Source: a bacterium CG10_46_32
GTDB lineage: Bacteria; Patescibacteriota; Patescibacteriia; UBA2169
DNA length: 64,000 bases
Reading direction: 5' to 3'
NCBI GenBank assembly: GCA_001889965.1
Contig: MOEI01000006.1
Coordinates: forward strand, 17,494-81,493
Shown: positions 10,929 to 39,624 of the stretch, piece after piece
How positions within the stretch are numbered: position 1 is the stretch's first letter
How the letters are laid out: the number at the start of each line of letters is the position of its first letter
The notes under the pieces: model-generated
What the model was told of the DNA's origin: nothing
Database searches by the model: none
What the model saw: the letters and a program-made list of their open reading frames with translations, nothing else
Position numbers and translations under genes: made by a program

Positions 10929-11888
10929 ATGAATAGCACCAATACATCAACAGATTTAACAGCACTAGAACACTCCAAAGCTATGTATCTTGCTTTTGAA
11001 AATCCTATAACAAAATTTTTCAAAAACTTTCTGCGTGAAAACGCTTTGTTGCGAAAATACCCAAGTTTTTTGTTGCAGTATAAATTTATGGCGTTTTTTC
11101 ATCACATGCTGTTTCCTTTTATGTATATTAAAAAAGGCGACACATGCGTGCAAGTAGGGTGCGCGGAGTGGATGCTTGATTTTGGAGTTTCCATGCCATT
11201 AATAATGTCGGCTATTGTTGGTGAGAGAGGCAGAGTGATTGTGGTTGAGCCGGACCAGCGGAATATCGAGGCACTGCGCTCGTACATGAAAAAAAACTAC
11301 ATACACAACATCACTATTGTTCCAAAAGCGGCATGGAGAGAAAAAACAACCAATCAATTTACCTTTTACGAAGACCGTTCCAGCACGAACATCATTACCG
11401 AGGTGGAGGAATCCGTGCCATGGAAAAACGATCCACAGTACCAAGGCCGCAAAAAGCGTATTGAAACCATTGAAATGGATACCATTGATAATATCATTCA
11501 AGAACTCGGCATTACACCTGATTTTGTGAATTTAACCATTAATTCCGCTGAATTTGATGTTATACATGGAATGACGGAGGTTATCCGGAAAGGTGTTATA
11601 GTGGCATGGCTCTTTGGGGATCGACCGTGGTGGCGGGAGGCGATTGATTATTTTAGAGTCAAGAACTACAGCATTATCGCCTGCGATTCCGCATATTCCC
11701 ACCGCGCTCCCACGGTTAATGGACGGGTGAGGATGTATTCGCATAAAGAGATCAGTGGCTTGTTTGATATCATGCATGCTGTTGCCATGCCGAGCGTTGG
11801 TAGGGTTCCTGACCATAGGGAATTTCCGGCAATATTGTACAAACGTAAGGATTTTGACTTTTTTGTGCAAAAAATTGACACCTTTTGA
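10929..11888 (+). CDS. FkbM-family methyltransferase (putative sugar O-methyltransferase)
   Basis: VQVGCAEW and VVVEPDQRNIEALR resemble FkbM domain motifs. Confidence 0.5.
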   Translation: MNSTNTSTDLTALEHSKAMYLAFENPITKFFKNFLRENALLRKYPSFLLQYKFMAFFHHMLFPFMYIKKGDTCVQVGCAEWMLDFGVSMPLIMSAIVGERGRVIVVEPDQRNIEALRSYMKKNYIHNITIVPKAAWREKTTNQFTFYEDRSSTNIITEVEESVPWKNDPQYQGRKKRIETIEMDTIDNIIQELGITPDFVNLTINSAEFDVIHGMTEVIRKGVIVAWLFGDRPWWREAIDYFRVKNYSIIACDSAYSHRAPTVNGRVRMYSHKEISGLFDIMHAVAMPSVGRVPDHREFPAILYKRKDFDFFVQKIDTF

Positions 11889-13356: not shown

Positions 13357-14117
13357 AATACGCTTTAGTAAATATAATCTCTACATTACTTGATGTTCTT
13401 TTTTTTCAAAAGCGTTTGTCGGGTATTCCAGTGCTTATGTATCACGCAATCGGGGATGCTGATTCAAAGGTATATATCCCTGTAAAGGCCTTTAAAGAAC
13501 AGATGGAATTTTTGGCAAAGCAGGGGTATCACAGCATGTTGCCGAATGCACTTGAGAATGTTGCGCCACGGGAAAAGTTTTTTTTAATCACGTTTGACGA
13601 TGGATTCAAATCAGTACGCGACGTTGCACTTCCTATTCTTGAGCAGTACGGATTCAAAGCCACGGTGTTCGTCACAACAGATTATATTGGTAAAACAAGC
13701 GAATACGCGAAATCAGAATCAGATAAACAGTTCGGACTTATGGATGAAAACGATCTACAGATGCTTGCGGAATCTGGGTGGTGCGTTGCGAACCATTTTG
13801 CATCCCATAAAAATCTTACCGAGCTTTCGATGGATGGCGTTCTGGGAGAATATAAAAAAGCATGTGCAGTACTCGAAGCAATGGGGCTTGGTAAGGATAA
13901 GAATATTGTTGCATACCCATTTAATCGGCACAGTCAACATGTTGTAGACGTGTTAAAAAAAGCAGGCGCAGCCATGGGATTCAATGGCAACAATCAGCTT
14001 CATTCTGCATCAGAACATCCGCTCGTAATTTCGCGCATTGAAGCCGATGGGAATATCGTAAAGTTTAAACTTAATTTTTCACCTTCATTCAATCGCATCA
14101 AACAGTATGTCCGATAA
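13353..14117 (+). CDS. Polysaccharide deacetylase (NodB homology domain)
   Basis: FLITFDDGFKSV motif. His-containing motifs lie downstream. Confidence 0.7.
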   Translation: MKYALVNIISTLLDVLFFQKRLSGIPVLMYHAIGDADSKVYIPVKAFKEQMEFLAKQGYHSMLPNALENVAPREKFFLITFDDGFKSVRDVALPILEQYGFKATVFVTTDYIGKTSEYAKSESDKQFGLMDENDLQMLAESGWCVANHFASHKNLTELSMDGVLGEYKKACAVLEAMGLGKDKNIVAYPFNRHSQHVVDVLKKAGAAMGFNGNNQLHSASEHPLVISRIEADGNIVKFKLNFSPSFNRIKQYVR

Positions 14118-14730
14118 CCAGAAAAACAAGTACTACGACTTTCTCTACGAACCCTTGCCAAGGTGGTCGAGTTACTGGTACCAGATACATGAGGTGCTCT
14201 CACGCAATCCGAAGACGGTTTTGGAAGTGGGTGTGGGAAACCATGTGGTAACAGAGTATTTAAAACATGCCGGAGTTTCTGTAACCACGCTGGATGTAGA
14301 AAAAAAGCTCGCGCCGGATGTGGTCGCGTCGGTCACCGCCATACCCCTTGCGGACGCAAGCCATGATGTGGTTCTTGCAGCCGAAGTTCTAGAGCATCTT
14401 CCGTTCGAAGATTTTTCAAAAGCGCTTGCAGAAATCAATCGCGTCACAAAACAGCATGCCGTTATTTCTTTGCCACACTGGGGGTCAGTCATTGCTGGCA
14501 CGCTTAAAGTTCCAATGTTTCCGTGGCTGCGGTTTGTGTGGAAACTTAAGGGGTTTAAGCGCCATATACTGTCCCAAAATGGGCACTATTGGGAAATCGG
14601 AAAAGCCGGATATCCGCTCGGCCGCGTCAAGCGTGAAATGCACAAAGCAGGTTTTGAAATCATTAAAGATTATGTCATTATAGAGTATCCGTACCACCAC
14701 TTTTTTATTTTAAAGAAGCAAGCAGTATGA
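14107..14730 (+). CDS. Class I SAM-dependent methyltransferase
   Basis: VLEVGVGNHVV as motif I and LAAEVLEHLP as motif II/III. Confidence 0.65.
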   Translation: MSDNQKNKYYDFLYEPLPRWSSYWYQIHEVLSRNPKTVLEVGVGNHVVTEYLKHAGVSVTTLDVEKKLAPDVVASVTAIPLADASHDVVLAAEVLEHLPFEDFSKALAEINRVTKQHAVISLPHWGSVIAGTLKVPMFPWLRFVWKLKGFKRHILSQNGHYWEIGKAGYPLGRVKREMHKAGFEIIKDYVIIEYPYHHFFILKKQAV

Positions 14731-16379
14731 ACATAGTAGGTATCAATCAAATTCCAGGCATGCTCTCTTGGACGCACGACAGCTCTTCTGCGCTTGTTGC
14801 GAATGGGAAGATTGTGGCAGCCGCAGAAGAAGAGCGGTTCAGCCGCTTGCGTCACCACAGGGGGTATCCACACCAGTCGTCTGCGTTTTGCCTTACACAA
14901 GGCAAGATTAATCTTAAAGATGTGGATTATATCGGGGTTCCGTACAATCCGTACGCATTTTTAAAGCATCCAAACTTACGACTAGAATCAATCGCCCGTA
15001 ATTTGTTTAATATGGCTGCGTGCTGGCACTATGCGCGGCGTATGCGCAAAGAGGCGGGGGCAAGGACTATATTTGTTCCTCATCATGTAGCCCATGCCGC
15101 AAGCGCATTTTATGGCTCTGGTTTTGAAAAGGCGAATATTTTAACAGTGGATGGATCTGGAGAAACCGAGAGTTTTGCGTTTTTTGTGGGTGATTCAAAC
15201 GGCATTCGTCGAGTATGGGATATTCCGCTTTCTGGATTCTTTAGTGGTGGCAAGTGGCGTTCAATTGGGCTTATTTATACTAGCGTTACTTCACTTTTGA
15301 ATCTTGGGGTAAATGGAGAAGGAAAAACTATGGGCTTAGCAAGCTATGGTAAGCCTGAGTATGATTTTTCAGACATCCTCAATATTCAATCTCATACCAA
15401 CTACCGCATTGACCGAAGGCGGCTGCTTGAGCGGTATGGGCATTTGCAACGCAAAGAAAGTGAGTCGCTCACACAAGAGCATAAGAATCTTGCCGCAAGC
15501 TTGCAGCACGCTTTGGAGCGCTCCATTGTTAATCTCGCACATGAAGCGTTTCAGTATAACGGCATTAAAAACTTTTGTTTGGCCGGAGGTGTTACGTTGA
15601 ATTGCAATACGAACAGTGAAATATTAAAACAGGATTTCTGCGATGCGCTTTTTATTCAGCCCGCGGCAAACGACGGCGGCATCGCGTTGGGCGCGGCGCT
15701 CGAGGTTGCGGCGCGCAAGGGAGAGCCTGCGACAGATGCGCTTGAAAACGCATATCTAGGTCCGGAATTTTCCAACGAAGCAATTGAAGCGGTATTGAGC
15801 GGAGCAAAGGTCAAGTATCACAAGGAGGATACTATTGCCCAGGCGGCGGCTCGCCTCATTAACGAAGGCAAGATTGTGGCCTGGTTCCAAGGCAGGATGG
15901 AAATGGGTCCGCGCGCTTTAGGCAACCGCTCTATTCTTGCGGATCCATCCGTTCTAGGAATGGATGAGAAAATTAATACATTTGTAAAACATCGAGAATC
16001 ATGGCGGCCGTTTGCACCTTCGGTTATCGAAGAAGCTGCGCCTACGTATTTTGAAGGCGTGGAAAAAGCAAGCAAGAAGAGCCCCTACATGCTGCACACA
16101 TTTTACGTTAAAGAAGAATACAGCAGCGCATTTCCAGCGATTACGCATGTGGATGGCTCCAGCCGCATCCAGACTGTACGCAGGGACCAGAACGAACGGT
16201 ATTATGATTTGCTCAAAGCGCTTGAAGCAATCAATGGGCATCCTATGGTGCTTAACACGTCCTTTAATGATAAGGGTGAGCCAATTGTATGCACGCCCCA
16301 GGATGCGTTGCGATGTTTTTTTGCGACTGGTATGGATGCGCTTGCTATTGGAGATTTTATCGTAGAAAAATCATCATAA
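14727..16379 (+). CDS. Carbamoyltransferase (NodU/CmcH/NovN family), probable sugar O-carbamoyltransferase
   Basis: N-terminal IVGINQ...HDSSSALVANGKIVAAAEEERFSRLRHH and the C-terminal YrdC-like half. Length is 550 aa. Confidence 0.8.
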   Translation: MNIVGINQIPGMLSWTHDSSSALVANGKIVAAAEEERFSRLRHHRGYPHQSSAFCLTQGKINLKDVDYIGVPYNPYAFLKHPNLRLESIARNLFNMAACWHYARRMRKEAGARTIFVPHHVAHAASAFYGSGFEKANILTVDGSGETESFAFFVGDSNGIRRVWDIPLSGFFSGGKWRSIGLIYTSVTSLLNLGVNGEGKTMGLASYGKPEYDFSDILNIQSHTNYRIDRRRLLERYGHLQRKESESLTQEHKNLAASLQHALERSIVNLAHEAFQYNGIKNFCLAGGVTLNCNTNSEILKQDFCDALFIQPAANDGGIALGAALEVAARKGEPATDALENAYLGPEFSNEAIEAVLSGAKVKYHKEDTIAQAAARLINEGKIVAWFQGRMEMGPRALGNRSILADPSVLGMDEKINTFVKHRESWRPFAPSVIEEAAPTYFEGVEKASKKSPYMLHTFYVKEEYSSAFPAITHVDGSSRIQTVRRDQNERYYDLLKALEAINGHPMVLNTSFNDKGEPIVCTPQDALRCFFATGMDALAIGDFIVEKSS

Positions 16380-16385
16380 TTATAT

Positions 16386-17132
16386 ATGTCTTCACCTACA
16401 GCATCAAACCAAGAAATTAAGGAATTGTATGAGCGTTCCATCGCGGAAAAATATCAGAACGATTACGAGTTTCGCCGTTGGTTTTTAACTGACCGGTTGC
16501 GTTTGGATTATTTTATGACGCGCACTGCCATTGCGCACCATTTGCAAGGGGTCATGTTTTCTTCGTGTCTTGAGTTTGGGCCGGGTTCGGGCATTTTTAC
16601 GGCAACCGCGTATCGCCGTAACCCAAGCGCGCGTTTTGACCTCATCGATATTTCTGAGGCAATGAAAAAACAGTTTGTACTGGAAATGCGTCCTATTCCT
16701 AATGTGAGTTATATGATTGGGGATATTATGGAGCACGATTTTGGAGACAGCACCTATGATTTGTTTTACAGCGTGCGCGCGGTTGAGTATGTGGACGACC
16801 AAGAAGGATTTTTTAAGAAGGTGCATGGATTGCTCAATGCAGGAGGCCATGGAGTTATTGTAACCAAGAACCCTCATTACGGATCTGCGGAGCGGGGTGA
16901 GAGTACGCGGAGTCAGCATCGCGGCAAATTGGGGGTTAATCAAACAGAGCAGCTTTTGGCTGAGGTCGGCTTTAAGAATATCCAGATCTATCCGGTTATT
17001 ATCCGTTTGCCAATTATTGAGCGGCTCACGCTTCGGTTTACAGAAAAGTATTTCCAGCGCGCGTACCAAAAGCCGTTTAACAAAAATATGTCGCGATTTG
17101 TGGAAAGTTATATTGTCATTTTTGAGAAATAG
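16386..17132 (+). CDS. Class I SAM-dependent methyltransferase
   Basis: LEFGPGSGIFT as motif I. Confidence 0.65.
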   Translation: MSSPTASNQEIKELYERSIAEKYQNDYEFRRWFLTDRLRLDYFMTRTAIAHHLQGVMFSSCLEFGPGSGIFTATAYRRNPSARFDLIDISEAMKKQFVLEMRPIPNVSYMIGDIMEHDFGDSTYDLFYSVRAVEYVDDQEGFFKKVHGLLNAGGHGVIVTKNPHYGSAERGESTRSQHRGKLGVNQTEQLLAEVGFKNIQIYPVIIRLPIIERLTLRFTEKYFQRAYQKPFNKNMSRFVESYIVIFEK

Positions 17133-17133
17133 T

Positions 17134-17709
17134 ATGATACACGAATTTATTGGCCTTCCTGGGGCCGGAAAAAGTTATATGGCGAATCAGATTGCACAAT
17201 CTAAAGGAATTGTAGGAGTTGAGATCAAAAACACTAAAGAACGTTTGGCGCGCTCGTTGTTGTTTTTTATTAGCCATCCTTTTTTTTCGGCACGGCTGTT
17301 GGCGATATTTATACAAGAGAATTATAAAAATTCAAAACTGCTTAAACATAAGTTTGCCACCATTGTGTTAGAAATTATGGCACGCGAACAAAAGGTGAAA
17401 CAAGGGGAGATGATTGAAACAGGATTTTTTCAGCTTTTGCTTTCGATCTACGAAAGAGAAATCAGCGAAAAAGATGTTGCCTCTCTATTTTACTGGCTCA
17501 AAAAGCGGGATTACATGGTATATATTGTTGAAGCGAGTAGGGAAATCCGTGAAAAACGCATACAAGAACGAGGCCGCATTCCGCGCGGTGGAGTGGTTAC
17601 AGATACTTCTAAGCTTGTGGCATGGTTTGGACTGTTGGAGCATAATTTTGAAACCGTCAAACAAGGAATTATAAAAGATTTTTTATATGAACGTATTCAA
17701 AACAATTAA
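17134..17709 (+). CDS. P-loop NTPase, function unknown (small kinase- or ATPase-like)
   Basis: Walker A GLPGAGKSY at the N-terminus of about 191 aa. I chose the ATG at 17134. Confidence 0.45.
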   Translation: MIHEFIGLPGAGKSYMANQIAQSKGIVGVEIKNTKERLARSLLFFISHPFFSARLLAIFIQENYKNSKLLKHKFATIVLEIMAREQKVKQGEMIETGFFQLLLSIYEREISEKDVASLFYWLKKRDYMVYIVEASREIREKRIQERGRIPRGGVVTDTSKLVAWFGLLEHNFETVKQGIIKDFLYERIQNN

Positions 17710-20362
17710 ACATTTGGTATGGCGCAGGGCGTTTTGGGTGGCGCTTTTTGTAGTGATGGTCGCGGTGAATGCCGTGCTGGTGCTTGCGTATATGAGTAAC
17801 AATCGCAATCAACTGATTTACAGCCCCATAGCCAAAGCCGGATTGCCATTCTATCGTTCGGCGCGGGAAGTGATTAATGCAGCCATCGACAGCACCTATG
17901 TGTTTGCCATGCGCAGGGACGTAGGGATTCCGCAGTACCGTTTAGAGATTGCAACCGATGATTTGCGCAAACTCAACAATGCACTCCCCAGCTCGCTTGA
18001 TAACGAGGTGATTGCAGGTAGCATCCTTTTTGACGAGGCTTTAAAAGATACAGTTAAAGGGGTATTGCATTATGGAGACAAAGCCTATGATGTAAAAGTG
18101 CGTTACCGTGGATTAAATCCAAACCATTGGACTCGCCCAAAAAAATCCTGGCAGATTAAATTTAACAAAGACACGCCGTTCCAAGGAATCCGCACGCTTA
18201 AACTTATTATTCCGGTTGACCGCGGGTACTTTGCCGAGGCTCTCAACAACTACCGCGCCAAAAAATTAGGCTTATCCTACCCTGCCGCGGAGTTTGTCCA
18301 GCTGTATGTAAATAATAATTACCAGGGCGTATATTTTAGCGTGGAAGATTTTTCCGCTGCGTTTTTGGAGCGCAGCCAACTTCCGCCGGACGCGAATATC
18401 TACGCGACCGACGAGCCGCTTAGTACGGACCAAGAGGACGCAATAGCGTATGACAGTGTTTCGTTCTGGAACAAGCAGACGAGTGACACACTGTTTAATT
18501 TTGATAATTTTTCAGAATTGGATTTTTTATTGAGCCGCATGCAGCAAGATAATTTTGCAGATGTTGCGCCGGATATTATTGACATGGACAATTTTTATAG
18601 CTGGAACATAGTGGCGCTTTTGGCAGGGAGTAACCATCAGAGCGACTGGGGAAACATGCGTCTGTATTTTAATAATGTAAAAGGAAAATTTGAATTTATC
18701 CCTTGGGACGTGGGGCTCAAAAATACCATGCCGGATCAATTAGCCAATGAGCTCACAGAGAAACTCCTTTCCAATCCCACATTCTACCAGGAACGAAATC
18801 GCCGGTTATGGGAATATGTAAGCAACGAAAAAAATTTGCAGGATGATGTAACGTACTATGACGGATTATACAACCAGCTTAAAGGCGCTTTTTATAGTGA
18901 TTTTAAAAAGCATGAGAACAATCACACGTTTAACGGGCGCGTTGTAGAAATCCGAAACCAGTATGCGGGATTGTTTGGTACGCTCAAAGGATTGTTTGGA
19001 GAAGATATTATTAATCTGACAGTGCGGCATGATGCATCTAAAAAAATACTCGCGCTTTCGTTTGAGGTGGATAGTTTTGCGGGAGTGACTCTTGCGGGCA
19101 TAACCCTTCCCCAAGGATCGCAACTGGTTTCCAATACGGGCCAATACCTGTTTCGACCGAATGAAGATGTTGCAATAACATATTCCGGTGTCCCCATTGG
19201 CGATATTTCCAGTATTATATTCAATCTTATACATGCAGTGACTGGCGAGCCGGTTGGTATCGGTTCTATCCGGTTTATCGACAACTCTACCTTTGCCAAG
19301 TTTGACGATGTGCGCGCCTCTGCGGAATCATTTGTCGCTGCGCATGCGCAGTTTAGGCTGGAGAATAATGAGATTATACTACCTTCTGGAATACATGTTT
19401 TTTTGGAGGACATAGTAGCTCCCAAAGATGTTTTAGTCAGCATCCAACCTGGCACAACCATTTATTTTGCTCCTGGAGTTTCGTTTGTTTCGTATAGTCC
19501 GATTGAGGCGCTGGGAACAGCGGGTAGGCCCATTGTGCTCCGCCGACTTAATCCAAATGAGCCATGGGGAAGTTTCGCAATATTGAACGCTGGGTCAAAT
19601 AAGAGCACAATTGAGTACTTGGATGCTGATGGTGGAGGAAGTGACTACATCAACGGATCGTTTATAAGCGGCATGGTATCTGTATATTATTCGGATATCG
19701 AAGCGCGCAATCTCACCATTTCTCGGTCAGCAAGCGACGATGGCATGAATCTTAAATATTCAAAAGTTTTGGTTATGCAGAGCACCTTTAATAATAATTC
19801 CGCAGACGGATTAGACGGAGATTATATTTCCGGTACTATTGATGGAAGTGTATTTTTAGATAATGGTAATGATGGTATTGATTTAAGCGGCTCACGCATC
19901 ATGATAAGCAATAATCGCCTTGCTGGTTCCGGCGACAAATGCGTCAGCATCGGCGAAGGCACGAATAACACAGTTATTTTTAATACCATACTGGATGGTT
20001 GCCATATTGGCGTGCAGGCAAAGGATGGATCCTATCCGGCAGTCATCAATTCCATTATCATCAATAATGATATCGGTATTGATACATACCGCAAGAAAGA
20101 GTTGTATATAACCGGCGGGCATATAGTAGTGAGCAATTCCATTATTCGCGGCAATGCAGAGGCTGTGCACCAGGATGAATTTTCGGATATTGCGGTTTCT
20201 TTTTCCAATATTCAAGGCGCATATTCCGGCGAAGGAAATTTTGATGAAGATAAAAATTATTTTTTGGTTCAAGATATTGGCAAGGGAGACACACATACAG
20301 TTATCCAGTATGCGGGTATTAATGTAGAGCAGGCGCCGGTTGGTTTGTTTGAAGCATTTTAA
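17687..20362 (+). CDS. CotH-kinase-family protein with N-terminal TM anchor and C-terminal right-handed beta-helix (pectin-lyase-like) repeats
   Basis: CotH core VKVRYRGLNPNHWTRPKKSWQIKFNK...LKLI...LYVNNNYQGVYFSVEDFSAAFLER. C-terminal repeated N/G/D/I-rich beta-helix turns (NNRLAGSGDKCVSIGEGTNNTVIFNTILDGCHIGV...). Confidence 0.7.
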   Translation: MNVFKTIKHLVWRRAFWVALFVVMVAVNAVLVLAYMSNNRNQLIYSPIAKAGLPFYRSAREVINAAIDSTYVFAMRRDVGIPQYRLEIATDDLRKLNNALPSSLDNEVIAGSILFDEALKDTVKGVLHYGDKAYDVKVRYRGLNPNHWTRPKKSWQIKFNKDTPFQGIRTLKLIIPVDRGYFAEALNNYRAKKLGLSYPAAEFVQLYVNNNYQGVYFSVEDFSAAFLERSQLPPDANIYATDEPLSTDQEDAIAYDSVSFWNKQTSDTLFNFDNFSELDFLLSRMQQDNFADVAPDIIDMDNFYSWNIVALLAGSNHQSDWGNMRLYFNNVKGKFEFIPWDVGLKNTMPDQLANELTEKLLSNPTFYQERNRRLWEYVSNEKNLQDDVTYYDGLYNQLKGAFYSDFKKHENNHTFNGRVVEIRNQYAGLFGTLKGLFGEDIINLTVRHDASKKILALSFEVDSFAGVTLAGITLPQGSQLVSNTGQYLFRPNEDVAITYSGVPIGDISSIIFNLIHAVTGEPVGIGSIRFIDNSTFAKFDDVRASAESFVAAHAQFRLENNEIILPSGIHVFLEDIVAPKDVLVSIQPGTTIYFAPGVSFVSYSPIEALGTAGRPIVLRRLNPNEPWGSFAILNAGSNKSTIEYLDADGGGSDYINGSFISGMVSVYYSDIEARNLTISRSASDDGMNLKYSKVLVMQSTFNNNSADGLDGDYISGTIDGSVFLDNGNDGIDLSGSRIMISNNRLAGSGDKCVSIGEGTNNTVIFNTILDGCHIGVQAKDGSYPAVINSIIINNDIGIDTYRKKELYITGGHIVVSNSIIRGNAEAVHQDEFSDIAVSFSNIQGAYSGEGNFDEDKNYFLVQDIGKGDTHTVIQYAGINVEQAPVGLFEAF

Positions 20363-20371
20363 ATAGAAGAC

Positions 20372-21175
20372 ATGCAAGAGACTAAATTACATTTTCAGCG
20401 TTTCGAATTCAAATACCTTTTGAGTTTTCAGGAATGTGCGGAAATAAGAAAACGAATCAGCAGGTATGTTGCTTTGGATGGGTTTGCCAAGGATTCAGCT
20501 CAGGGGTTTTACAAGGTGGTCAGCCTGTATTACGACAGCCCTACCTTTTATTACTACCACCAAAAAATCGATGGCACCCGCAACCGCAAAAAGTTTAGAC
20601 TACGCACCTATTGCGTGGATGGCTCATTTGCAAAGCCGATATTTTTTGAGATTAAACGCAAATTTGATTCAGTAATCCTTAAAGATCGGTTTTTATTGGA
20701 TATGCCTCTCTATGAAGACTTTATTAAGGACGGCAGATTTGCGGGCATGGAATCTCGAGGAGGCAACAGCACGCATGTTGCGGAAGAATACGAGGAAACG
20801 GCGGCTCGGCGCAGTTTGGGGCCCAAAGTGCTTATTACATACCGTAGGGAGCCGTATCTTGGGGCATTTAATAAAAATTTTCGCATTACTTTTGATTATG
20901 ATATTAAAGCGTGCGAAGGCACGAGCTTATTCGAGAAAAAATGCGATACACCAGTGCTTGCGGATGGAGTAATTATGGAGATTAAATTTAACGGCAGGCT
21001 TCCGCATTACATTAAAGAAATTATTGATGGATATAATCTAGAGCGGGTTGCGTATTCAAAATACTGCCACGCAGTGGAAGCATGCTATGCGCTGCCGTAC
21101 ATTGCCGCGCCGCGCAATTATTTTTTCAACATTGATCAACCATTATTAATGCAACCATATGAACGAATTATTTAA
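20372..21175 (+). CDS. VTC-domain (CYTH-like, polyphosphate-polymerase-like) protein
   Basis: LHFQRFEFKYLL...VVSLYYDSP...RNRKKFRLRTY matches the bacterial VTC domain pattern. Confidence 0.65.
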   Translation: MQETKLHFQRFEFKYLLSFQECAEIRKRISRYVALDGFAKDSAQGFYKVVSLYYDSPTFYYYHQKIDGTRNRKKFRLRTYCVDGSFAKPIFFEIKRKFDSVILKDRFLLDMPLYEDFIKDGRFAGMESRGGNSTHVAEEYEETAARRSLGPKVLITYRREPYLGAFNKNFRITFDYDIKACEGTSLFEKKCDTPVLADGVIMEIKFNGRLPHYIKEIIDGYNLERVAYSKYCHAVEACYALPYIAAPRNYFFNIDQPLLMQPYERII

Positions 21176-21839
21176 CGCAACAACCGGAGGAAATTTTACG
21201 CTTTTGAATATCCTCGTAAATCTTGGTCTTACCTTGGTGTTATCCCTGTTTATTGCCTGGATGTACAAAAAGACGCACCGTGGACTCTCGTATTCCCAGA
21301 GTTTTATATTCACGCTGATTTTGATCAGCATGATTACTACCATTGCCATGATGGTGATCGGAAACAGCCTTGCGGTCGCGTTTGGACTTTTGGGCGCGTT
21401 TTCCATTATCCGATTCCGGACGCCAGTCAAGGACACAAAGGATACAGGATACATTTTTTTCAGCCTAGTGGAAGGCATGGCCGTAGGAACAAATAATCAT
21501 TTAATCGCTTTTGTTTCAACACTTGTCGTTTTGGTTGTTATATGGGCGCTGTATAAGAGCAATTTCGGCGCGTTGCACAAGAACGAGTTTTTGCTCATCT
21601 TTAGCGTTGATTACCAAAAACGGGAGAATGATTCATTTGCAGGTATCTTCGAAAAATATCTCAAGAACAGCATGCTCTTGAACATCAACGCAAAAGAGCA
21701 TACGCATAAATCCGAAATGGTATATAGTGTTTCATTCATCGATGAATCCGAAAGCAATGCGCTTATCCAAGGATTAATGGCTGTTGATGGGGTTTCGGAG
21801 GCGCGGGTTATTAGTTCCAAAGCAGACATTGAATACTAG
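21159..21839 (+). CDS. DUF4956-family integral membrane protein
   Basis: GNSLAVAFGLLGAFSIIRFRTPVKDTKDTGYIFFSLVEGMAVG matches the DUF4956 signature. Three to four TM helices. Confidence 0.6.
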   Translation: MNELFNATTGGNFTLLNILVNLGLTLVLSLFIAWMYKKTHRGLSYSQSFIFTLILISMITTIAMMVIGNSLAVAFGLLGAFSIIRFRTPVKDTKDTGYIFFSLVEGMAVGTNNHLIAFVSTLVVLVVIWALYKSNFGALHKNEFLLIFSVDYQKRENDSFAGIFEKYLKNSMLLNINAKEHTHKSEMVYSVSFIDESESNALIQGLMAVDGVSEARVISSKADIEY

Positions 21840-21846
21840 GAGATAT

Positions 21847-23640
21847 ATGGCACTATCGCTTAAAGACAATCGAATTTCCAAAATCCTGTCGCTCTCGCGG
21901 CGCGCGTTTGGACGCTACAAATGGCAGATCGCGACATTGGCGGTTCTTGGACTTGTTACTGGCATTCTGGAGGGCGTTGGCGTTAACGCGTTGATCCCGC
22001 TGTTTTCGTTTGTTATCGGCACCAACGATGCCTCGATTGACCCGATTACGCGAAACATAGAAAGATTTTTTATTTTTATCCATATTCCATTTTCTCTTAA
22101 GTACCTGCTTATGTTCATCGTAGTGCTGTTTGTGCTTAAAGCGGTGATTATTTTGATTTTTAACTACATCAGAATCAAGATCGACACGAATTACGAAGAA
22201 ACTGTCCGGAATGACTTGTTTAAAAGCGTTTTGCTTGCGCAGTGGCCATACCTTCTTACACAAAAGATCGGCTATCTGGAAACAGTGCTAATGACTGATG
22301 TACTGCGTGGTTCTGTAATGTTGCGCCAAATAGGGAATATTATTATGGTAACAACCGGTCTTTTAGTGTATGCGCTGGTGGCAATCAATATTTCTCCAAT
22401 TATCACTATAAGCACGCTTGCGCTGGGTGCGGTTTTATTCCTGTTTTTTAAGCCGCTTCTGTATCGGACGCGTGTATGCGCGGTACGTGCGTCCGAGGCA
22501 AATAAAGAAGTTTCTCATTATGTGAATGAGAGTATTCTGGGGATGAAGACGATTAAGTCTATGCACGCGCATAGATGGGTGATTGCCAAAGGCGGAGAAT
22601 TTTTTGATGAATTAAAACGTTTAAAAATGATCACGCTTATTTTGAGCAGTGTTTCGAGCTCCCTGTTGCAGCCGATTAGTTTGATATTTATTGTTATTGT
22701 GTTTGCTCTAGCGTACAAAATGCCGGGATTTAGCGTTGCCGCGCTCATTGCGATTGTGTACTTGATTCAGAGGATTTTTCAGTACATTCAGCAGTTACAG
22801 TCCAATTTGCATGAGGCAAGCGATGCAGTGCCGTATTTGCAAAATCTCCTCGCATACCAGCAAAAAGCAGATGACCATCGAGAAAAAGATTTAGGGAAGA
22901 GCGAGTATTTATTTAAGCGCACGTTGTCGTTTAACAACGTCAGTTTTTCCTATCAGTTGGATCGGCCGGTATTGGATGGTCTCAGCTTTTCTATGAATAA
23001 GGGTGAAATGGTTGGTTTAATTGGCGAGTCTGGTTCCGGAAAAACCACTATTGTTGATTTGCTTTTACGTTTGTTTGATGCAAGCAAAGGGGAGATATTG
23101 CTTGATGGAAAAGATATTCGCGATGTGCGGCTCGGAGCATGGCGAAAGAACATTGGGTATGTTTCGCAAGATGTGTTTTTAATTAATGATACGATTGCTA
23201 ATAATATCAAGTTTTTTGATTCCGCTGTCTCGGACGCAGACGTTGTTGTTGCCGCAAAAATGGCGAATATTTATGAATTCATACAAAGCTGTCCAGATGG
23301 ATTTAAAACGATGGTGGGGGAGCGGGGGGTTATGCTTTCTGCGGGCCAGCGCCAGCGCGTTGCCATTGCCCGGGTATTGGCGCGCAAGCCAAAGATTTTG
23401 ATACTGGATGAAGCTACTAGTGCGCTTGATAATGAGTCTGAAGCGAAAATTCAGGAGGTTATCGAGAATCTTCGGCACAAGGTTACGGTTTTGGTTGTTG
23501 CGCATCGGCTTTCTACGGTTATGAGCGCGGACAAGCTTATTGTGTTGGAAAAAGGGATTATTATTGAAGAAGGCAAGCCGAAAGATTTGCTTAATGATGC
23601 ACATTCTTATTTTTACAAACTGAGTAATATGGTGAAGTAA
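21847..23640 (+). CDS. ABC transporter, fused permease/ATPase (type IV exporter, MsbA/PglK-like); candidate lipid-linked glycan flippase
   Basis: Six N-terminal TM helices, Walker A GESGSGKTT, signature LSAGQRQR, Walker B ILILDEATSALD. Confidence 0.85.
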   Translation: MALSLKDNRISKILSLSRRAFGRYKWQIATLAVLGLVTGILEGVGVNALIPLFSFVIGTNDASIDPITRNIERFFIFIHIPFSLKYLLMFIVVLFVLKAVIILIFNYIRIKIDTNYEETVRNDLFKSVLLAQWPYLLTQKIGYLETVLMTDVLRGSVMLRQIGNIIMVTTGLLVYALVAINISPIITISTLALGAVLFLFFKPLLYRTRVCAVRASEANKEVSHYVNESILGMKTIKSMHAHRWVIAKGGEFFDELKRLKMITLILSSVSSSLLQPISLIFIVIVFALAYKMPGFSVAALIAIVYLIQRIFQYIQQLQSNLHEASDAVPYLQNLLAYQQKADDHREKDLGKSEYLFKRTLSFNNVSFSYQLDRPVLDGLSFSMNKGEMVGLIGESGSGKTTIVDLLLRLFDASKGEILLDGKDIRDVRLGAWRKNIGYVSQDVFLINDTIANNIKFFDSAVSDADVVVAAKMANIYEFIQSCPDGFKTMVGERGVMLSAGQRQRVAIARVLARKPKILILDEATSALDNESEAKIQEVIENLRHKVTVLVVAHRLSTVMSADKLIVLEKGIIIEEGKPKDLLNDAHSYFYKLSNMVK

Positions 23641-25166
23641 TGAATATGAAAAAAGTTTTTTTAATAAATTTTTCTTCACAAATTCTCATTAACGTCGCTA
23701 ATAATTTAAAGGCGAATGGATCAGAGATTGTGTATTGGCAGGGTTATCGTGATGATTTTGACCATATGGATCGGAGTGAACATCCGGAAACCATATTTCA
23801 TCATGCGTTTGATGCCATTAAGAATATTTCACCCGAAGGAGTTGATGTATCTGAATTTGAACCAGTGAGCCATGAATTGGTCAGCCGGCTCTATGAGAGC
23901 GGCTGGCAGGCTTTAGCCATGATGAGCCGGGCTGATCATGCTGATTCTGTTTTTACTGAAAAACGGAATTATTATTATCAGTATTTAAAATTTTGGCAAG
24001 GCATGCTTAAAAGATTAAAGCCAGATGTGATTGTTTTTTCTGCCATCCCGCATTCAGCAACTAGCCATGTCCTGTATGCACTGGCAAAATTAATGAACAT
24101 CGAGACCATTATGATTAATCAGCTGACTATTGAGACGCGTGCCCTACTTATGACAGATTATCAAACCGATTCCGCAGCATTGCGGGACGAAGTAAAAAAA
24201 CATCGGTCGGCCAAGATCGGTATTGATACCTTGAGTCTGGATTTAAAAACATATTATTTAAACCACCTTGATCCGGCTATTGACTCAACGCCGCAATACA
24301 AAAAAGTTTACGCAAAAAGCAAGATGCCATTTGCTTTTCCGAGCGTGCCAACCATTATAAAACACCTATACCGATTGACTTTTTTTAACGTTGCGCGCTC
24401 GTACTTGACCATGATTTTAACCAAGAGAAAAATGAGTCACATCGGCCCGGTATTACGAGGTCAGTCGTACAAAAGTAAGATAAAAAAATGGAAGAAAGAA
24501 ATCGAGTGCGTTAAAAAAGAGTACGAAGCCCTGCAGCAACAGCCAGATTTGAATAAAAAGTTTGTTTATTTGCCTTTAAGTTTCCAGCCGGAGCAGACAA
24601 CTTGTCCTCGTGGTGATGTTTTTGACGATCAATTGCTTATGATAGATATCATATCTGCGTCGCTTCCAGAGGGATGGGTTTTGTATATTAAAGAACATGC
24701 GCCGCAGTGGTATCCGAAAAGCATTGAGGCATACCAGTACCGATATCAGGGCTACTATGAGAGAATTGCGTGCATGAAAAACACCATGTTGATTCCCGTG
24801 ACTACTTCAACATTTGATTTGATTGAACGAGCACAGGCTATTGCAACGGTTACTGGCACTGCAGGATGGGAGTCGCTGATACGATCCAAGCCAGTGTTGC
24901 TGTTTGGGTATATTTGGTATATGTACTGTGATGGCGTGTTTCAGGTGCAGGATGCGACTTCCTGCGCTAGAGCGTTTGAAGAAATATGCACCGGGTATCG
25001 CGTCGAATCGCAGAAAGTGATTAATTTTTTGGCCGCACTAGACTTGGTAAGCTTAAAAATTAAAAATTATAAAACACGTTTTTTTGTAGAGAGCGATGGC
25101 ATAACATTCGACGATAACGTTCGCGCGCTTACCAATGGTATTAGTAATATGATAAACAATTCGTAA
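23640..25166 (+). CDS. Capsule_synth-like (KpsS/KpsC/LpsZ-type) putative CMP-sugar-dependent GT-B glycosyltransferase
   Basis: C-terminal VYLPLSFQPEQT...WVLYIKEHAPQWYP resembles the HP-motif region of beta-Kdo and sialyl transferases. This is a weak call. Confidence 0.35.
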   Translation: MNMKKVFLINFSSQILINVANNLKANGSEIVYWQGYRDDFDHMDRSEHPETIFHHAFDAIKNISPEGVDVSEFEPVSHELVSRLYESGWQALAMMSRADHADSVFTEKRNYYYQYLKFWQGMLKRLKPDVIVFSAIPHSATSHVLYALAKLMNIETIMINQLTIETRALLMTDYQTDSAALRDEVKKHRSAKIGIDTLSLDLKTYYLNHLDPAIDSTPQYKKVYAKSKMPFAFPSVPTIIKHLYRLTFFNVARSYLTMILTKRKMSHIGPVLRGQSYKSKIKKWKKEIECVKKEYEALQQQPDLNKKFVYLPLSFQPEQTTCPRGDVFDDQLLMIDIISASLPEGWVLYIKEHAPQWYPKSIEAYQYRYQGYYERIACMKNTMLIPVTTSTFDLIERAQAIATVTGTAGWESLIRSKPVLLFGYIWYMYCDGVFQVQDATSCARAFEEICTGYRVESQKVINFLAALDLVSLKIKNYKTRFFVESDGITFDDNVRALTNGISNMINNS

Positions 25167-25169
25167 CCT

Positions 25170-26165
25170 ATGAACACCATGAACACACTCAAAGACAAAA
25201 CCATTTTAATTACCGGCGGCACAGGTTCGTTTGGTAAGAATTTTATACGATTTTTACTGGACCAATCGGAAGTAAAAAAAATTATTGTATTCAGCCGTGA
25301 CGAACTTAAACAGTCGGAAATGCAGCGCGAGATTCAAGATGTCCGATTACGTTTTTTTCTGGGGGATGTTCGTGATTTGGAGCGACTTAGGCGCGCGTTT
25401 TTTGAAGTTGATGTTGTGGTCCATGCCGCTGCGCTCAAACAGGTGCCTACGCTTGAGTATAATCCGTTTGAGGCGGTAAAAACCAACATCATGGGAACCC
25501 AGAACGTTATTGACGCGGCCATTGATTTGGGGGTTGAAAAAGTGGTATTGATTTCAACCGATAAAGCCGCGCAACCCATTAATTTATATGGTTCCACTAA
25601 GCAGTGCGCGGAAAAATTGTTCGTGGCCGGCAATTCGTACGCTGCCGGGCGTACGCGTTTTAGCTGTGTGCGATATGGAAATGTCATTGGAAGTCGAGGC
25701 AGTATTATTGAGATGTTGTTGCGGGAGAAAGATGCGCGCGAGGTGACAGTTACCGACGAGGGCATGACTAGGTTTTGGCTTTCTTTGGACGAAAGTTTCA
25801 AGTTGGTATGTTTCGCGCTTGAGCATATGGTTGGTGGAGAAATTTTTATACCGAAGGATATTCCCAGCATGCGCATGGGTGACGTATTTGCCGCGCTTGC
25901 TCCGAATGCTAAAAAGAAAATTATCGGCATCCGACCCGGAGAAAAGATGCACGAGGTACTATTGACCGAAGAAGAAGCACGCCGCGCTGTGGTGTTGGGA
26001 AAGTATTTTGTTGTGTTGCCCGAATATCATCACGCAGTCAGCATGGAGAAGTTTGAGCCATACAGGGCACAAGGGGAAACATTGCCCGATGGTTTTTCTT
26101 TTCGGAGCGATACAAATACTTTGCAAATGAGCAAGGAAGACCTGTGCGCCGTGGCGCAAAAATAA
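25170..26165 (+). CDS. pseB: UDP-N-acetylglucosamine 4,6-dehydratase (PseB/FlaA1-type short-chain enzyme)
   Basis: ILITGGTGSFGKNF Rossmann motif, YGSTK catalytic motif and about 331 aa. It sits next to a PseC-like transaminase. Confidence 0.75.
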   Translation: MNTMNTLKDKTILITGGTGSFGKNFIRFLLDQSEVKKIIVFSRDELKQSEMQREIQDVRLRFFLGDVRDLERLRRAFFEVDVVVHAAALKQVPTLEYNPFEAVKTNIMGTQNVIDAAIDLGVEKVVLISTDKAAQPINLYGSTKQCAEKLFVAGNSYAAGRTRFSCVRYGNVIGSRGSIIEMLLREKDAREVTVTDEGMTRFWLSLDESFKLVCFALEHMVGGEIFIPKDIPSMRMGDVFAALAPNAKKKIIGIRPGEKMHEVLLTEEEARRAVVLGKYFVVLPEYHHAVSMEKFEPYRAQGETLPDGFSFRSDTNTLQMSKEDLCAVAQK

Positions 26166-26168
26166 TTT

Positions 26169-27278
26169 ATGATACCCTACGCACGACAACATATTAGTCA
26201 GGACGACATTGCGGCGGTTGCTTCCGCACTTCGTTCGGATTGGCTCACCCAAGGTCCTCAAGTTGCTGTGTTTGAAAAGGCTTTGGCTTTGTACTGCGGT
26301 GTCAAGTACGTGGTTGCTGTTTCTAACGGGACGGCCGCGTTGCATATAGCATACCTTGCGGCCGGCATTGTCAGCGGAGATGAGGCTATCACAACTCCAA
26401 ACACGTTTGTCGCAACTACTAATATGCTTTTGGCTGTGGGTGTTAAGCCCGTGTTTTCAGATATCCGTCTAGATACGTATAACCTGAACCAGGAGGAAAT
26501 TGAAAAGCATATTACTAAAAAGACCAAAGTAATCGTGCCGGTGCATTTTGCCGGGCAGTCGTGTGACATGTCCGCCATTAGGTCAATTGCCAAAAAGCAC
26601 AAGCTCTTGGTCATCGAAGATGCCTGCCATGCACTAGGTGGGCAATATAGGCAGAAAAAAATCGGCAGTTGCGCGTATTCGGATATGGCGGTGTTTAGCT
26701 TCCATGCTATTAAATCAATTACCACGGCGGAAGGTGGCGCAGTGCTTACAAATAATAAAAAGTTTTATGAAAAAATGCTGCGCGTGCGGAGCCATGGAAT
26801 CCATAAAGACAAGAGCGGATTTAATGTGATGTCTGAGTTTGGGTACAACTACCGGCTGACAGAGTTACAGGCGGCCCTAGGCTTGTCGCAACTTAAGCAG
26901 TTAAATCGTTTTATTGCGGCTCGACGCAAGGTTGCACGAGCATACCAGGTCGCGCTTGAAGGCATTCCAGGAATCATAGCGCCCACGGAGCTGGATCAGA
27001 ACACTTCTGCATGGCACCTGTACGTTATCCGAACCAAGAAAGCATCCGACCGATTGCCGCTGTATCGGCATTTGCAACAATCCGGGATTGGCATCAATTT
27101 TCATTATCCGGCAGTGTACAGCCATCCCTACTATAAAAAATTGGGTTTTAAAGGGCGTCAGTGTCCTCATATGGAGTTGTACGGCAAGACAGCAATTACT
27201 TTGCCGATGCATGTTTCTGTTTCCGAGCGCGATATTAAAACTATTGCTCAAGCTATCAAATTGTATTTTAACGTATGA
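26169..27278 (+). CDS. pseC: DegT/DnrJ/EryC1/StrS-family PLP aminotransferase (PseC-like)
   Basis: N-terminal pattern typical of sugar aminotransferases and the SFHAIKSITTAEGG Lys motif. Confidence 0.75.
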   Translation: MIPYARQHISQDDIAAVASALRSDWLTQGPQVAVFEKALALYCGVKYVVAVSNGTAALHIAYLAAGIVSGDEAITTPNTFVATTNMLLAVGVKPVFSDIRLDTYNLNQEEIEKHITKKTKVIVPVHFAGQSCDMSAIRSIAKKHKLLVIEDACHALGGQYRQKKIGSCAYSDMAVFSFHAIKSITTAEGGAVLTNNKKFYEKMLRVRSHGIHKDKSGFNVMSEFGYNYRLTELQAALGLSQLKQLNRFIAARRKVARAYQVALEGIPGIIAPTELDQNTSAWHLYVIRTKKASDRLPLYRHLQQSGIGINFHYPAVYSHPYYKKLGFKGRQCPHMELYGKTAITLPMHVSVSERDIKTIAQAIKLYFNV

Positions 27279-29013: not shown

Positions 29014-29017
29014 CCAT

Positions 29018-31140: not shown

Positions 31141-31141
31141 T

Positions 31142-34954: not shown

Positions 34955-34955
34955 T

Positions 34956-36014: not shown

Positions 36015-36487
36015 TGCGCATGCAATATACTCAGCAACACAGTACCATTCGTCCTATAATGCCAGAAGACGCTAAGCGTGTATGGGAAATTCGCAATCAC
36101 CCATCTGCTCGCTCGCATTCGGGAAATCCGGAGGCTATTTCTTATCAGCAGCATGCATCTTGGTTTGCAAATAAGTATTTTAGCGGCCTGGACAATACAG
36201 CGTTTGTGCTCGTCGTTGATGCGGGGCAGGTTGTTGGATATTGTCGGTTTGATTGCAATAAAGAACAGGGCGGTTATATTGTTTCTATTGCTATCGATTC
36301 TGATTTTCAGGGCAAAGGCTTTGGGCATGCATTATTGCGTGGCGCGTTGGATCAATATGCGCAGGGAAAAGTGATTTTTGCAGAAATTCAGAAAGATAAC
36401 ATTGCTTCTGTTCATTTGTTTAAAAAAAATGGATTTTCTATAGAAAGTGAAGATGAAAAAAAATATTATCTTTTGTTGAGAATGTAG
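36014..36487 (+). CDS. GNAT N-acetyltransferase, PseH-like
   Basis: VWEIRNHPSARSHS (PseH-like) and the GNAT motif A QGKGFGHALL. Length is 157 aa. Confidence 0.6.
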   Translation: MRMQYTQQHSTIRPIMPEDAKRVWEIRNHPSARSHSGNPEAISYQQHASWFANKYFSGLDNTAFVLVVDAGQVVGYCRFDCNKEQGGYIVSIAIDSDFQGKGFGHALLRGALDQYAQGKVIFAEIQKDNIASVHLFKKNGFSIESEDEKKYYLLLRM

Positions 36488-36488
36488 T

Positions 36489-39620: not shown

Positions 39621-39624
39621 TACT

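Follow-up and report, generated by a model that had tools for sequence, protein, structure and literature searches.

Introduction

The genes for a CotH-like kinase-fold protein, a protein with the polyphosphate (polyP) polymerase domain of the VTC family and a DUF4956 membrane protein are best known as companions of Pel exopolysaccharide genes. Whitfield et al. (2020) reported that in streptococci, clostridia and bifidobacteria pelDEADAFG adjoins a set of accessory genes, namely cotH, a poly-phosphate polymerase gene, DUF4956 and DUF4832, and suggested regulation by protein phosphorylation (bioRxiv 10.1101/768473 / PMC7112168). In Streptococcus intermedius, a 2025 mBio study found that deletion of SIR_1592 (DUF4956) or SIR_1594 (CotH) changes the level of Pel and lowers aggregation; its authors noted a phosphate theme and reported that the trio was not found outside Pel loci (PMC12345266). 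In Clostridium perfringens, the locus NELoc-2 carries in succession a VTC gene, a "tubulin/FtsZ-like" membrane protein, CotH, a protein of 685 amino acids (aa), a HEAT protein and a glycosyltransferase (PMC2879425). CotH itself is distantly related to Fam20C (PMC7821199). In this study, we examined the same trio in a 64,000-nucleotide (nt) stretch of the Patescibacteria-type genome of bacterium CG10_46_32 (contig MOEI01000006.1, positions 17,494 to 81,493 of the forward strand; hereafter the window), to which all coordinates below refer unless another locus is named.

The conserved unit consists of three genes, encoding the CotH-like, VTC and DUF4956 proteins, a trio that is already known. An initial annotation of the window had remarked that this neighbourhood recurs without any assigned biochemistry, in agreement with what had already been published (bioRxiv 10.1101/768473 / PMC7112168; PMC12345266). 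The reading we favour, and hold tentatively, is that the VTC and DUF4956 proteins may make and export polyP, and that the CotH-like protein may use this polyP on a surface glycan. The export half of this model is better supported than the CotH half.

Results

All four open reading frames (ORFs) that the initial annotation had placed in this stretch are present on the plus strand, and its assignment of three of them to the CotH, VTC and DUF4956 families was confirmed, each lying above its Pfam cut-off. The 891-aa CotH-like protein (17687..20362, plus strand), with an N-terminal signal anchor, a CotH kinase fold, an immunoglobulin (Ig)-like domain and a right-handed beta-helix, matches CotH PF08757 with 89.6 bits (cut-off 23.8; E=3.7e-25) over residues 138-409. 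The 267-aa soluble VTC-domain protein (20372..21175, plus strand), a putative polyP polymerase with a Vtc4-like triphosphate tunnel, matches VTC PF09359 with 155.5 bits (cut-off 23; E=2.2e-45) over profile positions 2-234 of 235. The 226-aa DUF4956 membrane protein (21159..21839, plus strand), the constant neighbour of VTC and our proposed translocation subunit, matches PF16316 with 60.5 bits (cut-off 30.6; E=2.2e-16). No NCBIfam model matched any of the three.

To place the trio in a comparative frame, 80 loci reached through a VTC alignment from species-representative genomes and seven from homologue look-ups were annotated with local hidden Markov models (HMMs); after removal of duplicates 83 were counted, the window included. 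These were divided by locus type and by the name of the metagenome-assembled genome (MAG) into 36 Patescibacteria loci and 47 from other phyla, the latter labelled "diderm-type" here, a term for which the envelope was not the criterion. The closest genomic relatives of the VTC gene come from Parcubacteria, Magasanikbacteria, Niyogibacteria and related groups, while Bacteroidota, Rhodothermales, Ignavibacteria, Myxococcota, Planctomycetota, Lentisphaerae and Verrucomicrobia are among the diderm-type phyla. In 82 of the 83 loci (35/36 in Patescibacteria and 47/47 in other phyla), DUF4956 comes immediately after VTC, and the same adjacency holds in six records of Firmicutes and Actinobacteria, which were drawn from a plasmid collection. 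CotH lies within 10 kb of the pair in 33 of the 36 Patescibacteria loci and is adjacent in 26, usually in the order CotH-VTC-DUF4956 and sometimes with a second, shorter CotH paralogue. Profile searches with VTC and DUF4956 returned only Patescibacteria among the best 120 matches listed, and among these there were no fusion architectures and no Firmicutes. Several of the Patescibacteria-type loci (L009, L016, L018, L021, L029, L035 and L040) come from MAGs named "uncultured Gammaproteobacteria", L009 being the same contig as L001; these labels are doubtful because the loci share their type with Patescibacteria MAGs.

The neighbourhood of the trio differs between the two groups of loci. Among 116 neighbouring proteins at 31 Patescibacteria loci, the most frequent families were glycosyltransferases of family GT4 (16), S-adenosylmethionine (SAM) methyltransferases (16), radical SAM proteins (7), CE4 deacetylases (7), sugar epimerases/dehydratases (6) and GT2 glycosyltransferases (5). 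The linkage to glycan genes that had been expected from the window alone was seen in all Patescibacteria relatives examined. It extends to the Pseudobutyrivibrio plasmid pNP95, where the order GT2-CotH-VTC-DUF4956-GT4-pyruvyl transferase puts the trio in a non-Pel exopolysaccharide cluster. Among 141 neighbours in other phyla, the commonest were HlyD-type membrane-fusion proteins (15) and OEP/TolC-like proteins (13). With iterated local HMMs, an HlyD-like gene (M) was found to abut VTC (V) and DUF4956 (D) in 40 of the 47 diderm-type loci, in the order M-V-D or V-D-M(-O), O being the OEP/TolC-like gene that is often present as well; none did so in the 36 Patescibacteria loci or in the Firmicutes and Actinobacteria records. 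We considered whether the HlyD and OEP genes belong to a neighbouring conventional pump and rejected this, as a polytopic transporter or ABC gene is absent within 4 kb in 38 of the 47 loci, which leaves DUF4956 as the sole candidate for the inner-membrane partner. HlyD-flanked examples among loci L038 and L041-L087 are L069 (8001-12474), L083 (9782-13816) and L075 (8937-11642). The absence of HlyD/TolC-like partners from the window would be expected if Patescibacteria lack an outer membrane.

A further regularity concerns the side of the membrane on which the proteins would act. Taking N-terminal hydrophobic segments as export signals or anchors, we found them in all 38 CotH ORFs from Patescibacteria and in 20 of 25 from other phyla, as against 0 of 36 and 2 of 45 VTC ORFs, respectively. 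Individual CotH partners carry other surface signals, namely a lipobox in E. faecalis and a type IX secretion system (T9SS) sorting domain in L041.

The VTC protein of the window consists of the VTC domain only, with no SPX domain, transmembrane (TM) or other hydrophobic segment, or signal detected by Pfam and hydropathy. A phmmer search of the single sequence against Protein Data Bank (PDB) sequences gave no match, whereas a family profile of six members reaches the catalytic domain of yeast Vtc4 (3g3q) at E=1.7e-4. In Vtc4, the triphosphate is bound by K200, R264, R266, K281, Y359 and R361, each of which is needed for yeast to make polyP (bioRxiv 10.1101/2023.01.27.525886). These residues align to K14, R76, R78, K95, Y157 and R159 of the window protein, all six of which are invariant in our family alignment A2. 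Vtc4 further has a Mn-binding residue, E426, and a lysine, K458, that separates active Vtc4 from inactive Vtc2/3 (bioRxiv 10.1101/2023.01.27.525886). The profile alignment to 3g3q stops before E426 and S457/K458; the invariant motifs M202-E203-x-K205 and S229-K230-Y231 of the bacterial family look like their equivalents, a judgement made at the level of motifs. Proteins with this domain are common in bacteria, forming at least 5,660 clusters (representatives at 90% identity) at E <= 1e-10. Our literature searches found no biochemical study of a bacterial VTC enzyme and nothing relevant on secretion of extracellular polyP.

For the DUF4956 protein, a model built by AlphaFold with database proteins (predicted local distance difference test, pLDDT, 72) has five predicted TM helices (residues 15-134; 21201..21560, plus strand) and a C-terminal ferredoxin/ACT-like domain of beta-alpha-beta-beta-alpha-beta topology, predicted to be cytoplasmic (residues 143-219; 21585..21815, plus strand). 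Foldseek matched the C-terminal domain to ACT domains and to the C-terminal domain of NikR, and found no match for the membrane part. The published description of S. intermedius SIR_1592 gives that protein a similar architecture of TM and ACT parts, although the number of TM segments is four (PMC12345266). Across 58-80 DUF4956 sequences from many phyla, Y36, G79, R85-F86-R87, D95, G106 and G110 are invariant; by the positive-inside rule, the RFR motif together with K91 and D95 is predicted at the cytoplasmic end of TM3 and in the TM3-TM4 loop of the model. MgtC PF02308 scores 21.0 bits against the window protein, below its cut-off of 31.4, while some homologues carry a precomputed PF02308 match and JGI names such as "YhiD". 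Judged by sequence, a relationship between DUF4956 and MgtC/SapB would be distant at best.

The CotH-like protein is built of four parts. A signal anchor or TM helix (about residues 15-38; 17729..17800, plus strand) was placed by hydropathy and a positive-inside count, and corresponds to helix 2-38 of the AlphaFold model (alignment of 20 homologues; pLDDT 87.5). Since K5, K8, R13 and R14 precede this single N-terminal helix, everything after it is predicted to be extracellular, in line with the TM-anchored topology first suggested. The CotH kinase-fold domain follows (about residues 80-436; 17924..18994, plus strand), supported by Pfam, by phmmer (E=1.4e-12 to B. cereus CotH, 5jd9), by AlphaFold and by Foldseek, which aligned the model to 5jd9 over 376 columns (E=3.8e-15; target TM-score 0.82). 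The rest had been taken for a single beta-helix of roughly 450 aa, which the model corrects to an Ig-like beta-sandwich linker (residues 440-532; 19004..19282, plus strand; secondary structure of the model) and then a right-handed beta-helix of about 285 aa with conserved Asp-rich turns (residues 557-840; 19355..20206, plus strand). The latter is matched by Pfam Beta_helix PF13229 (E=1.7e-11) and NosD, and its turns are conserved in our CotH family alignment A1. Foldseek related it to PL6 alginate lyases, AlgE epimerases, NosD and phage tailspikes, so that the modelled domain resembles polysaccharide-binding or -processing domains. The 47 database homologues of the protein are all metagenomic, and those with names belong to Patescibacteria, e.g. 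Magasanikbacteria; our literature searches returned no paper on CotH in Patescibacteria.

The active site departs from that of Bacillus CotH at one position. In B. subtilis CotH, the D228Q and D251A variants are inactive (PMC7821199); the two residues correspond to D224 and D247 in the 5jd9 chain from B. cereus. In the HMM-guided alignment (hmmalign with B. cereus CotH), the D224 column holds a histidine in the window protein, H317 in a GSxH motif, within the active-site stretch H317...N323...D341 (18635..18709, plus strand). The metal-binding aspartate is kept as D341 of a PWD motif (the equivalent of D247; at least 90% in A1), and the catalytic-loop asparagine, N323, is invariant. In A1, R141, G142, K152 and P339 are likewise invariant, and H317, W340 and D341 nearly so. 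A phmmer alignment alone is shifted by one residue and sets Q318 opposite the aspartate; there is no aspartate under either alignment, and loop 318-322 is variable and of low model confidence. Histidine occupies this column in 31 of 33 CotH proteins from Patescibacteria loci and in 42 of 45 database homologues, whereas aspartate is found in 21 of 24 VTC-linked CotH proteins from other phyla and in all four from Firmicutes and Actinobacteria. The loss of CotH catalytic residues was therefore partial: the catalytic aspartate is gone, and the Mg-binding asparagine and aspartate have stayed. Going by the alignments, the pattern in Patescibacteria is best described as a conserved replacement with metal ligands kept and probably not as decay. 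With histidine in place of the catalytic aspartate, the chemistry probably differs from the Ser/Thr protein phosphorylation performed by Bacillus CotH, and the initial description as an atypical protein kinase, if meant in that sense, probably does not apply.

CotH architecture varies between loci. In L007 (3243-5321), a CotH-like protein, P0041, carries a C-terminal CYTH domain (PF01928; 32.4 bits, cut-off 23.2) in place of the beta-helix, with the ExExK motif (EYEDK) on its predicted extracytoplasmic part, and VTC and DUF4956 follow. Our local VTC HMM did not match this domain, and its placement by Pfam in CYTH assigns it to a different branch of the tunnel superfamily. Two CotH paralogues stand side by side in L011, L012, L017, L027, L028, L033 and L039, one short (~560-600 aa) and one long with a beta-helix; in L028 and L033 an ORF of its own encodes the beta-helix, beside a short CotH.

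Genomic context of the trio

The first of the four ORFs encodes a 191-aa protein (17134..17709, plus strand; ATG at 17134 after the stop of the upstream methyltransferase) with a Walker A motif, GLPGAGKS, at residues 7-14. Its best Pfam scores, AAA_33 (19.8 bits, cut-off 27) and AAA_18 (16.9 bits, cut-off 29.4), are below threshold, and NCBIfam gave only a trace of (d)CMP-kinase. By local HMM the gene is found in the window and in L001/L009 and L002-type loci only, the L001 homologue being called at 192 aa. We therefore rejected it as a fourth member of the module, for which it had first been taken, and regard it as a lineage-specific accessory gene restricted to the nearest relatives.

Genes in this part of the window are tightly packed. 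The P-loop and CotH genes overlap by 23 nt, 9 nt separate CotH from VTC, VTC and DUF4956 overlap by 17 nt, and 4 nt lie between the end of DUF4956 and the ATG of an ABC exporter gene; overlapping or nearly abutting as they are, these genes probably form one transcription unit. A consensus scan for promoters and terminators over 14000-26500 placed no transcription boundary: promoter-like sites were at chance level (20 against 25.1 ± 5.3 in shuffles), terminator-like sites were somewhat more numerous (23 against 14.0 ± 3.7), and the listed sites were judged intragenic.

Upstream of the four ORFs lie a carbamoyltransferase and a SAM methyltransferase. The exporter downstream (21844..23640, plus strand; Pfam ABC_membrane and ABC_tran) is a fused transmembrane domain-nucleotide-binding domain protein of the HepA/MsbA/PglK type; its best NCBIfam matches, HepA and MsbA, are both under their equivalog cut-offs, and it also adjoins the trio in the related loci L001 and L002. 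It is followed by a 508-aa protein (23640..25166, plus strand) that matches Capsule_synth (KpsC/KpsS-like) weakly (Pfam E=8.9e-5; 22.5 bits, cut-off 20), a gene kept in L001 and L028. The glycan-island setting was described correctly at the outset, with decoration enzymes upstream and the exporter downstream.

The island measures some 60 kb, almost all genes from 262 to 60252 being on the plus strand and glycan-related. It includes GT4 and GT2 glycosyltransferases and GtrA, three UDP-N-acetylglucosamine (UDP-GlcNAc) 2-epimerases, two PseB-like dehydratases, DegT aminotransferases, two pairs of NeuB and a CMP-transferase, CE4 deacetylases, methyltransferases, the carbamoyltransferase and a HisH/HisF-like pair that accompanies two WbuX amidotransferases, together with two weak TagF-like proteins and a sulfotransferase beside a fused 3'-phosphoadenosine 5'-phosphosulfate (PAPS) synthase and a CysQ-like phosphatase. 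That the island might be a Pel locus was considered and rejected: no Pel-specific family and no DUF4832 occurred among the window proteins scanned, and its CE4 deacetylase and GT4 genes are generic.

Several parts of the island deserve a record of their own. The stretch 25170-42842 together with 46795-47997 apparently encodes two nonulosonic-acid pathways, with PseB-like dehydratases at 25170-26165 and 40794-41792, NeuB and CTP_transf_3 pairs at 34259-36014 and 37849-39620, a GNAT protein at 36014-36487 and UDP-GlcNAc 2-epimerases at 39541-40782 and 46795-47997, the third of these lying at 3329-4441. The two N-acetyl sugar amidotransferases of the WbuX type (27275-28393 and 29884-31140; TIGR03573, E=3e-93 and 6e-101) enclose the HisH/HisF-like pair (28390-29887), and 27275-31140 is a WbuXYZ-type set for acetamidino sugars. 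At 54503-57295 (plus strand), a 930-aa fusion joins a pyruvate-kinase barrel (PF00224, residues 6-324), PUA_2, ATP-sulfurylase and adenosine 5'-phosphosulfate (APS) kinase, i.e. a PAPS synthase with an unusual pyruvate-kinase-barrel N-terminus. It is flanked by a Sulfotransfer_3 sulfotransferase and a CysQ-like Inositol_P phosphatase (53284-54510 and 57549-58391), and the genes of 53284-58391 appear to make up a complete set for glycan sulfation in a genome of the Patescibacteria type. Two proteins of ~470 aa (36489-37901 and 47997-49400) give weak Glyphos_transf (TagF-like) matches; stronger TagF-like genes adjoin the trio in L002 and L005, which hints at a phosphodiester-linked polymer in these islands. 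The ORFs at 4434-6146 (570 aa), 10929-11888 (319 aa) and 33348-34265 (305 aa) had no Pfam match at E<=0.01, the first having none in NCBIfam either, and for the ORF at 44913-45983 (356 aa) the Pfam scan covered E<=1e-5 only.

Discussion

The initial annotation had offered glycan phosphorylation or polyphosphate-linked chemistry as alternatives for this module. We infer that the comparative evidence favours polyP export, because of the HlyD/TolC-like partners in diderm-type phyla, the division between VTC inside and CotH outside, and the CotH-CYTH fusion. In the mechanism we propose, the VTC protein would dock on a DUF4956 oligomer, with the invariant cytoplasmic RFR/K/D face as its docking site, and would polymerise phosphate from ATP at the cytoplasmic side. 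The growing chain would be threaded outward, polymerisation driving translocation as it does for eukaryotic VTC at the vacuolar membrane, and where there is an outer membrane its passage across the periplasm would fall to the HlyD-like and TolC-like partners. Outside, the CotH-like enzyme would hold nascent or mature glycan through its beta-helix and decorate it, with exported polyP serving either as phosphoryl donor or as the attached group. As the extracellular space is without ATP, a supply of polyP would solve the donor problem for such an enzyme. Phosphate would then be one more anionic decoration on a nonulosonic-acid-rich glycan that may also bear sulfate, carbamoyl, methyl and amidino groups.

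This proposal is supported by domain identity in all three proteins, by the fold of the CotH-like protein and the match of VTC to Vtc4 residues, by the constant pairing of the VTC and DUF4956 genes and by the VTC-inside/CotH-outside split, and we read the HlyD/TolC-like flanking in diderm-type phyla as an export signature. The link between CotH and a phosphate chain is supported by the proximity of CotH to the pair in Patescibacteria and by P0041; the link to glycans by the neighbouring genes, the pNP95 cluster, the Pel loci, the S. intermedius mutants and the likeness of the beta-helix to polysaccharide-active proteins. A broader version, which we consider possible but rather doubtful, is that VTC-DUF4956 might be a polyP synthase-translocon, extended by HlyD/TolC-like proteins where there is an outer membrane, that would supply phosphoanhydride energy to the outside; its CotH clients would (poly)phosphorylate surface glycans without ATP, and in Patescibacteria they would do so through a His-based active site, possibly with a phospho-His intermediate.

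A number of observations weigh against the export-and-use proposal. We know of no precedent for polyP as the donor of a CotH/Fam20-fold enzyme. The missing catalytic aspartate means that the CotH-like protein of this clade could be inactive. CotH was detected within 10 kb in just 19 of the 47 loci from other phyla, so the VTC-DUF4956 pair needs no neighbouring CotH. On the polymerase side, the correspondence of E203, S229 and K230 to Vtc4 E426, S457 and K458 is by motif alone and not by alignment, and polyP synthesis by a bacterial VTC protein, and export of the product, would go beyond domain identity, residues, topology and synteny. The DUF4956 model is of moderate confidence (its pLDDT is given above), and its TM part has no solved relative. 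Lastly, in S. intermedius, deletion of SIR_1593 (VTC) had no reported aggregation defect, unlike deletion of its two neighbours (PMC12345266).

Some of these points would be accommodated if polyP were itself the end product, a teichoic-acid-like anionic polymer of the wall or surface, and CotH a non-catalytic or non-kinase scaffold that might bind polyP in its old nucleotide/metal site and glycan through its beta-helix, tethering the two. The absence of the catalytic aspartate with retention of the metal ligands N323 and D341 is congruent with this, as is the occurrence of VTC-DUF4956(-HlyD-TolC) without a nearby CotH in 28 of the 47 loci from other phyla; the TagF-like genes, beside the trio in L002 and L005 and twice in weak form in the window, fit an anionic-polymer context, and the fusion of CotH to CYTH can be interpreted as a means of binding polyP. 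We nevertheless think this explanation unlikely, since the recurrent histidine (31/33 and 42/45), the invariant R141, K152 and N323, and D341 look like an active site under selection, and the VTC-linked CotH proteins of other phyla retain the full catalytic set. If CotH is active, it could instead be an ATP-dependent Ser/Thr protein kinase acting on surface or S-layer proteins or regulating the glycan machinery, with VTC-DUF4956 as a separate matter. Family membership and fold speak for this, as do the phosphorylation of CotB and CotG by B. subtilis CotH (PMC7821199) and the proposal of Whitfield et al. that Pel is regulated by phosphorylation (PMC7112168). This appears quite improbable to us, as the predicted site is extracytoplasmic, where ATP is unavailable, the replaced aspartate is one whose D228Q substitution kills the B. 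subtilis enzyme, and the fused beta-helix points to a polysaccharide ligand; moreover, such a role would not account for the persistent linkage of CotH to VTC-DUF4956 across phyla.

A different doubt concerns where the pair acts. VTC-DUF4956 could be an intracellular device for phosphate or cation homeostasis or for regulation, with MgtC-like membrane and ACT-like sensing parts, in which polyP is made or triphosphate hydrolysed inside the cell and the linkage to CotH and glycan genes reflects co-regulation only. The weak likeness of the TM region to MgtC (21 bits) and the "YhiD" names, the usual binding of small ligands by ACT-like domains and the presence of triphosphatases among CYTH-superfamily proteins would agree with such a role. 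An intracellular function does not explain, however, why HlyD/TolC-like genes abut the pair with no other pump, or why export is so consistently predicted for the CotH partners, and the VTC protein keeps the Vtc4-type polymerase residues, probably including the lysine of active Vtc4; we regard this explanation as very improbable. Fortuitous adjacency, with no functional unit at all, has in its favour only that glycan genes are dense throughout the island, and is refuted by the same gene order in dozens of loci, at identities down to about 27-38% and across phyla.

What sets the version in the window apart is its Patescibacteria host, its non-Pel location, the beta-helix fusion and the His active site. 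The new elements of this study are the near-constant VTC-DUF4956 adjacency (82/83), the retention of six Vtc4 residues, the split in location between VTC and CotH, the HlyD/TolC-like flanks, the Asp-to-His clade and the CotH-CYTH fusion, and with these comparative patterns the vague "phosphate theme" becomes a specific model of export and use. They touch on the broader question of how kinase-fold enzymes could act outside bacterial cells without ATP. If VTC-DUF4956 exports polyP, it would be a bacterial counterpart of the eukaryotic VTC complex and a new route to anionic cell surfaces, and would explain both the effect on Pel-dependent aggregation in streptococci and the travel of these genes with virulence-linked loci of Clostridium perfringens. 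In Patescibacteria the surface glycan coat is likely to be central to host attachment, and a phosphate-decoration module with an unusual His active site would offer a concrete biochemical handle on that coat.

Comparison with known systems

The nearest described system is the Pel accessory module. It shares with the window a CotH-like protein that is exported, a protein bearing a polyP-polymerase domain and a DUF4956 protein with MgtC-like TM and ACT parts, encoded in an exopolysaccharide locus by contiguous, co-oriented genes (17687-21839 in the window). It differs in that our scans of the window were without pelDEADAFG and DUF4832, in that the window CotH carries Ig-like and beta-helix domains and not FN3, in the histidine that stands for the catalytic aspartate, and in the host, a Patescibacteria-type genome; furthermore, the trio was found here outside Pel loci many times. 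NELoc-2 likewise has a VTC gene, an adjacent membrane protein of ~225 aa and CotH beside a glycosyltransferase, but in the order VTC-DUF4956-CotH, with a short CotH that has the canonical aspartate and no beta-helix, and with another glycosyltransferase partner. A Planococcus maritimus plasmid (L089, 5389-12824) has this same layout, namely VTC, DUF4956, CotH, a ~690-aa hypothetical protein, a HEAT-repeat protein and a glycosyltransferase; its membrane protein is annotated DUF4956, the counterpart of the NELoc-2 gene that carried the "tubulin/FtsZ" annotation.

With Bacillus CotH (5jd9/5jda), the window protein shares the Pfam family, the fold, the YRG arginine, the KKS lysine, the catalytic-loop asparagine and the PWD aspartate. 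The Bacillus enzyme has ~360 aa and acts on the coat proteins CotB and CotG, using ATP in the cytoplasm of the mother cell, whereas the window protein has 891 aa, is predicted to be extracellular, bears a beta-helix and has histidine replacing B. subtilis D228. Among enzymes with a kinase fold whose glycan substrates lie in a compartment outside the cytoplasm are the xylose kinase Fam20B and POMK, for which ATP is imported into the secretory lumen. The likeness to these Fam20/PKL secretory glycan kinases is by analogy, and they differ from the window CotH in that the latter has no evident ATP source, its supply being the proposed polyP.

With tripartite efflux and type I secretion systems, the common feature is the HlyD-like and OEP genes that flank VTC-DUF4956 in diderm-type phyla; the proposed inner-membrane part would be DUF4956 energised by the polymerase, and not an ABC, RND or MFS pump. 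The eukaryotic VTC complex (Vtc4, Vtc3 or Vtc2, and Vtc1) offers a parallel for the pair: both have a tunnel domain of the Vtc4 type in which the same basic residues surround the triphosphate, and in our proposal the pair would likewise couple synthesis at the cytoplasmic face to transport through a membrane partner. The window VTC differs in having neither SPX nor a built-in TM domain, and its membrane partner, the MgtC-like 5-TM and ACT protein DUF4956, is unrelated to Vtc1-type TM domains. The target, too, would differ, being the cell membrane, with HlyD/TolC-like extensions in diderm-type phyla.

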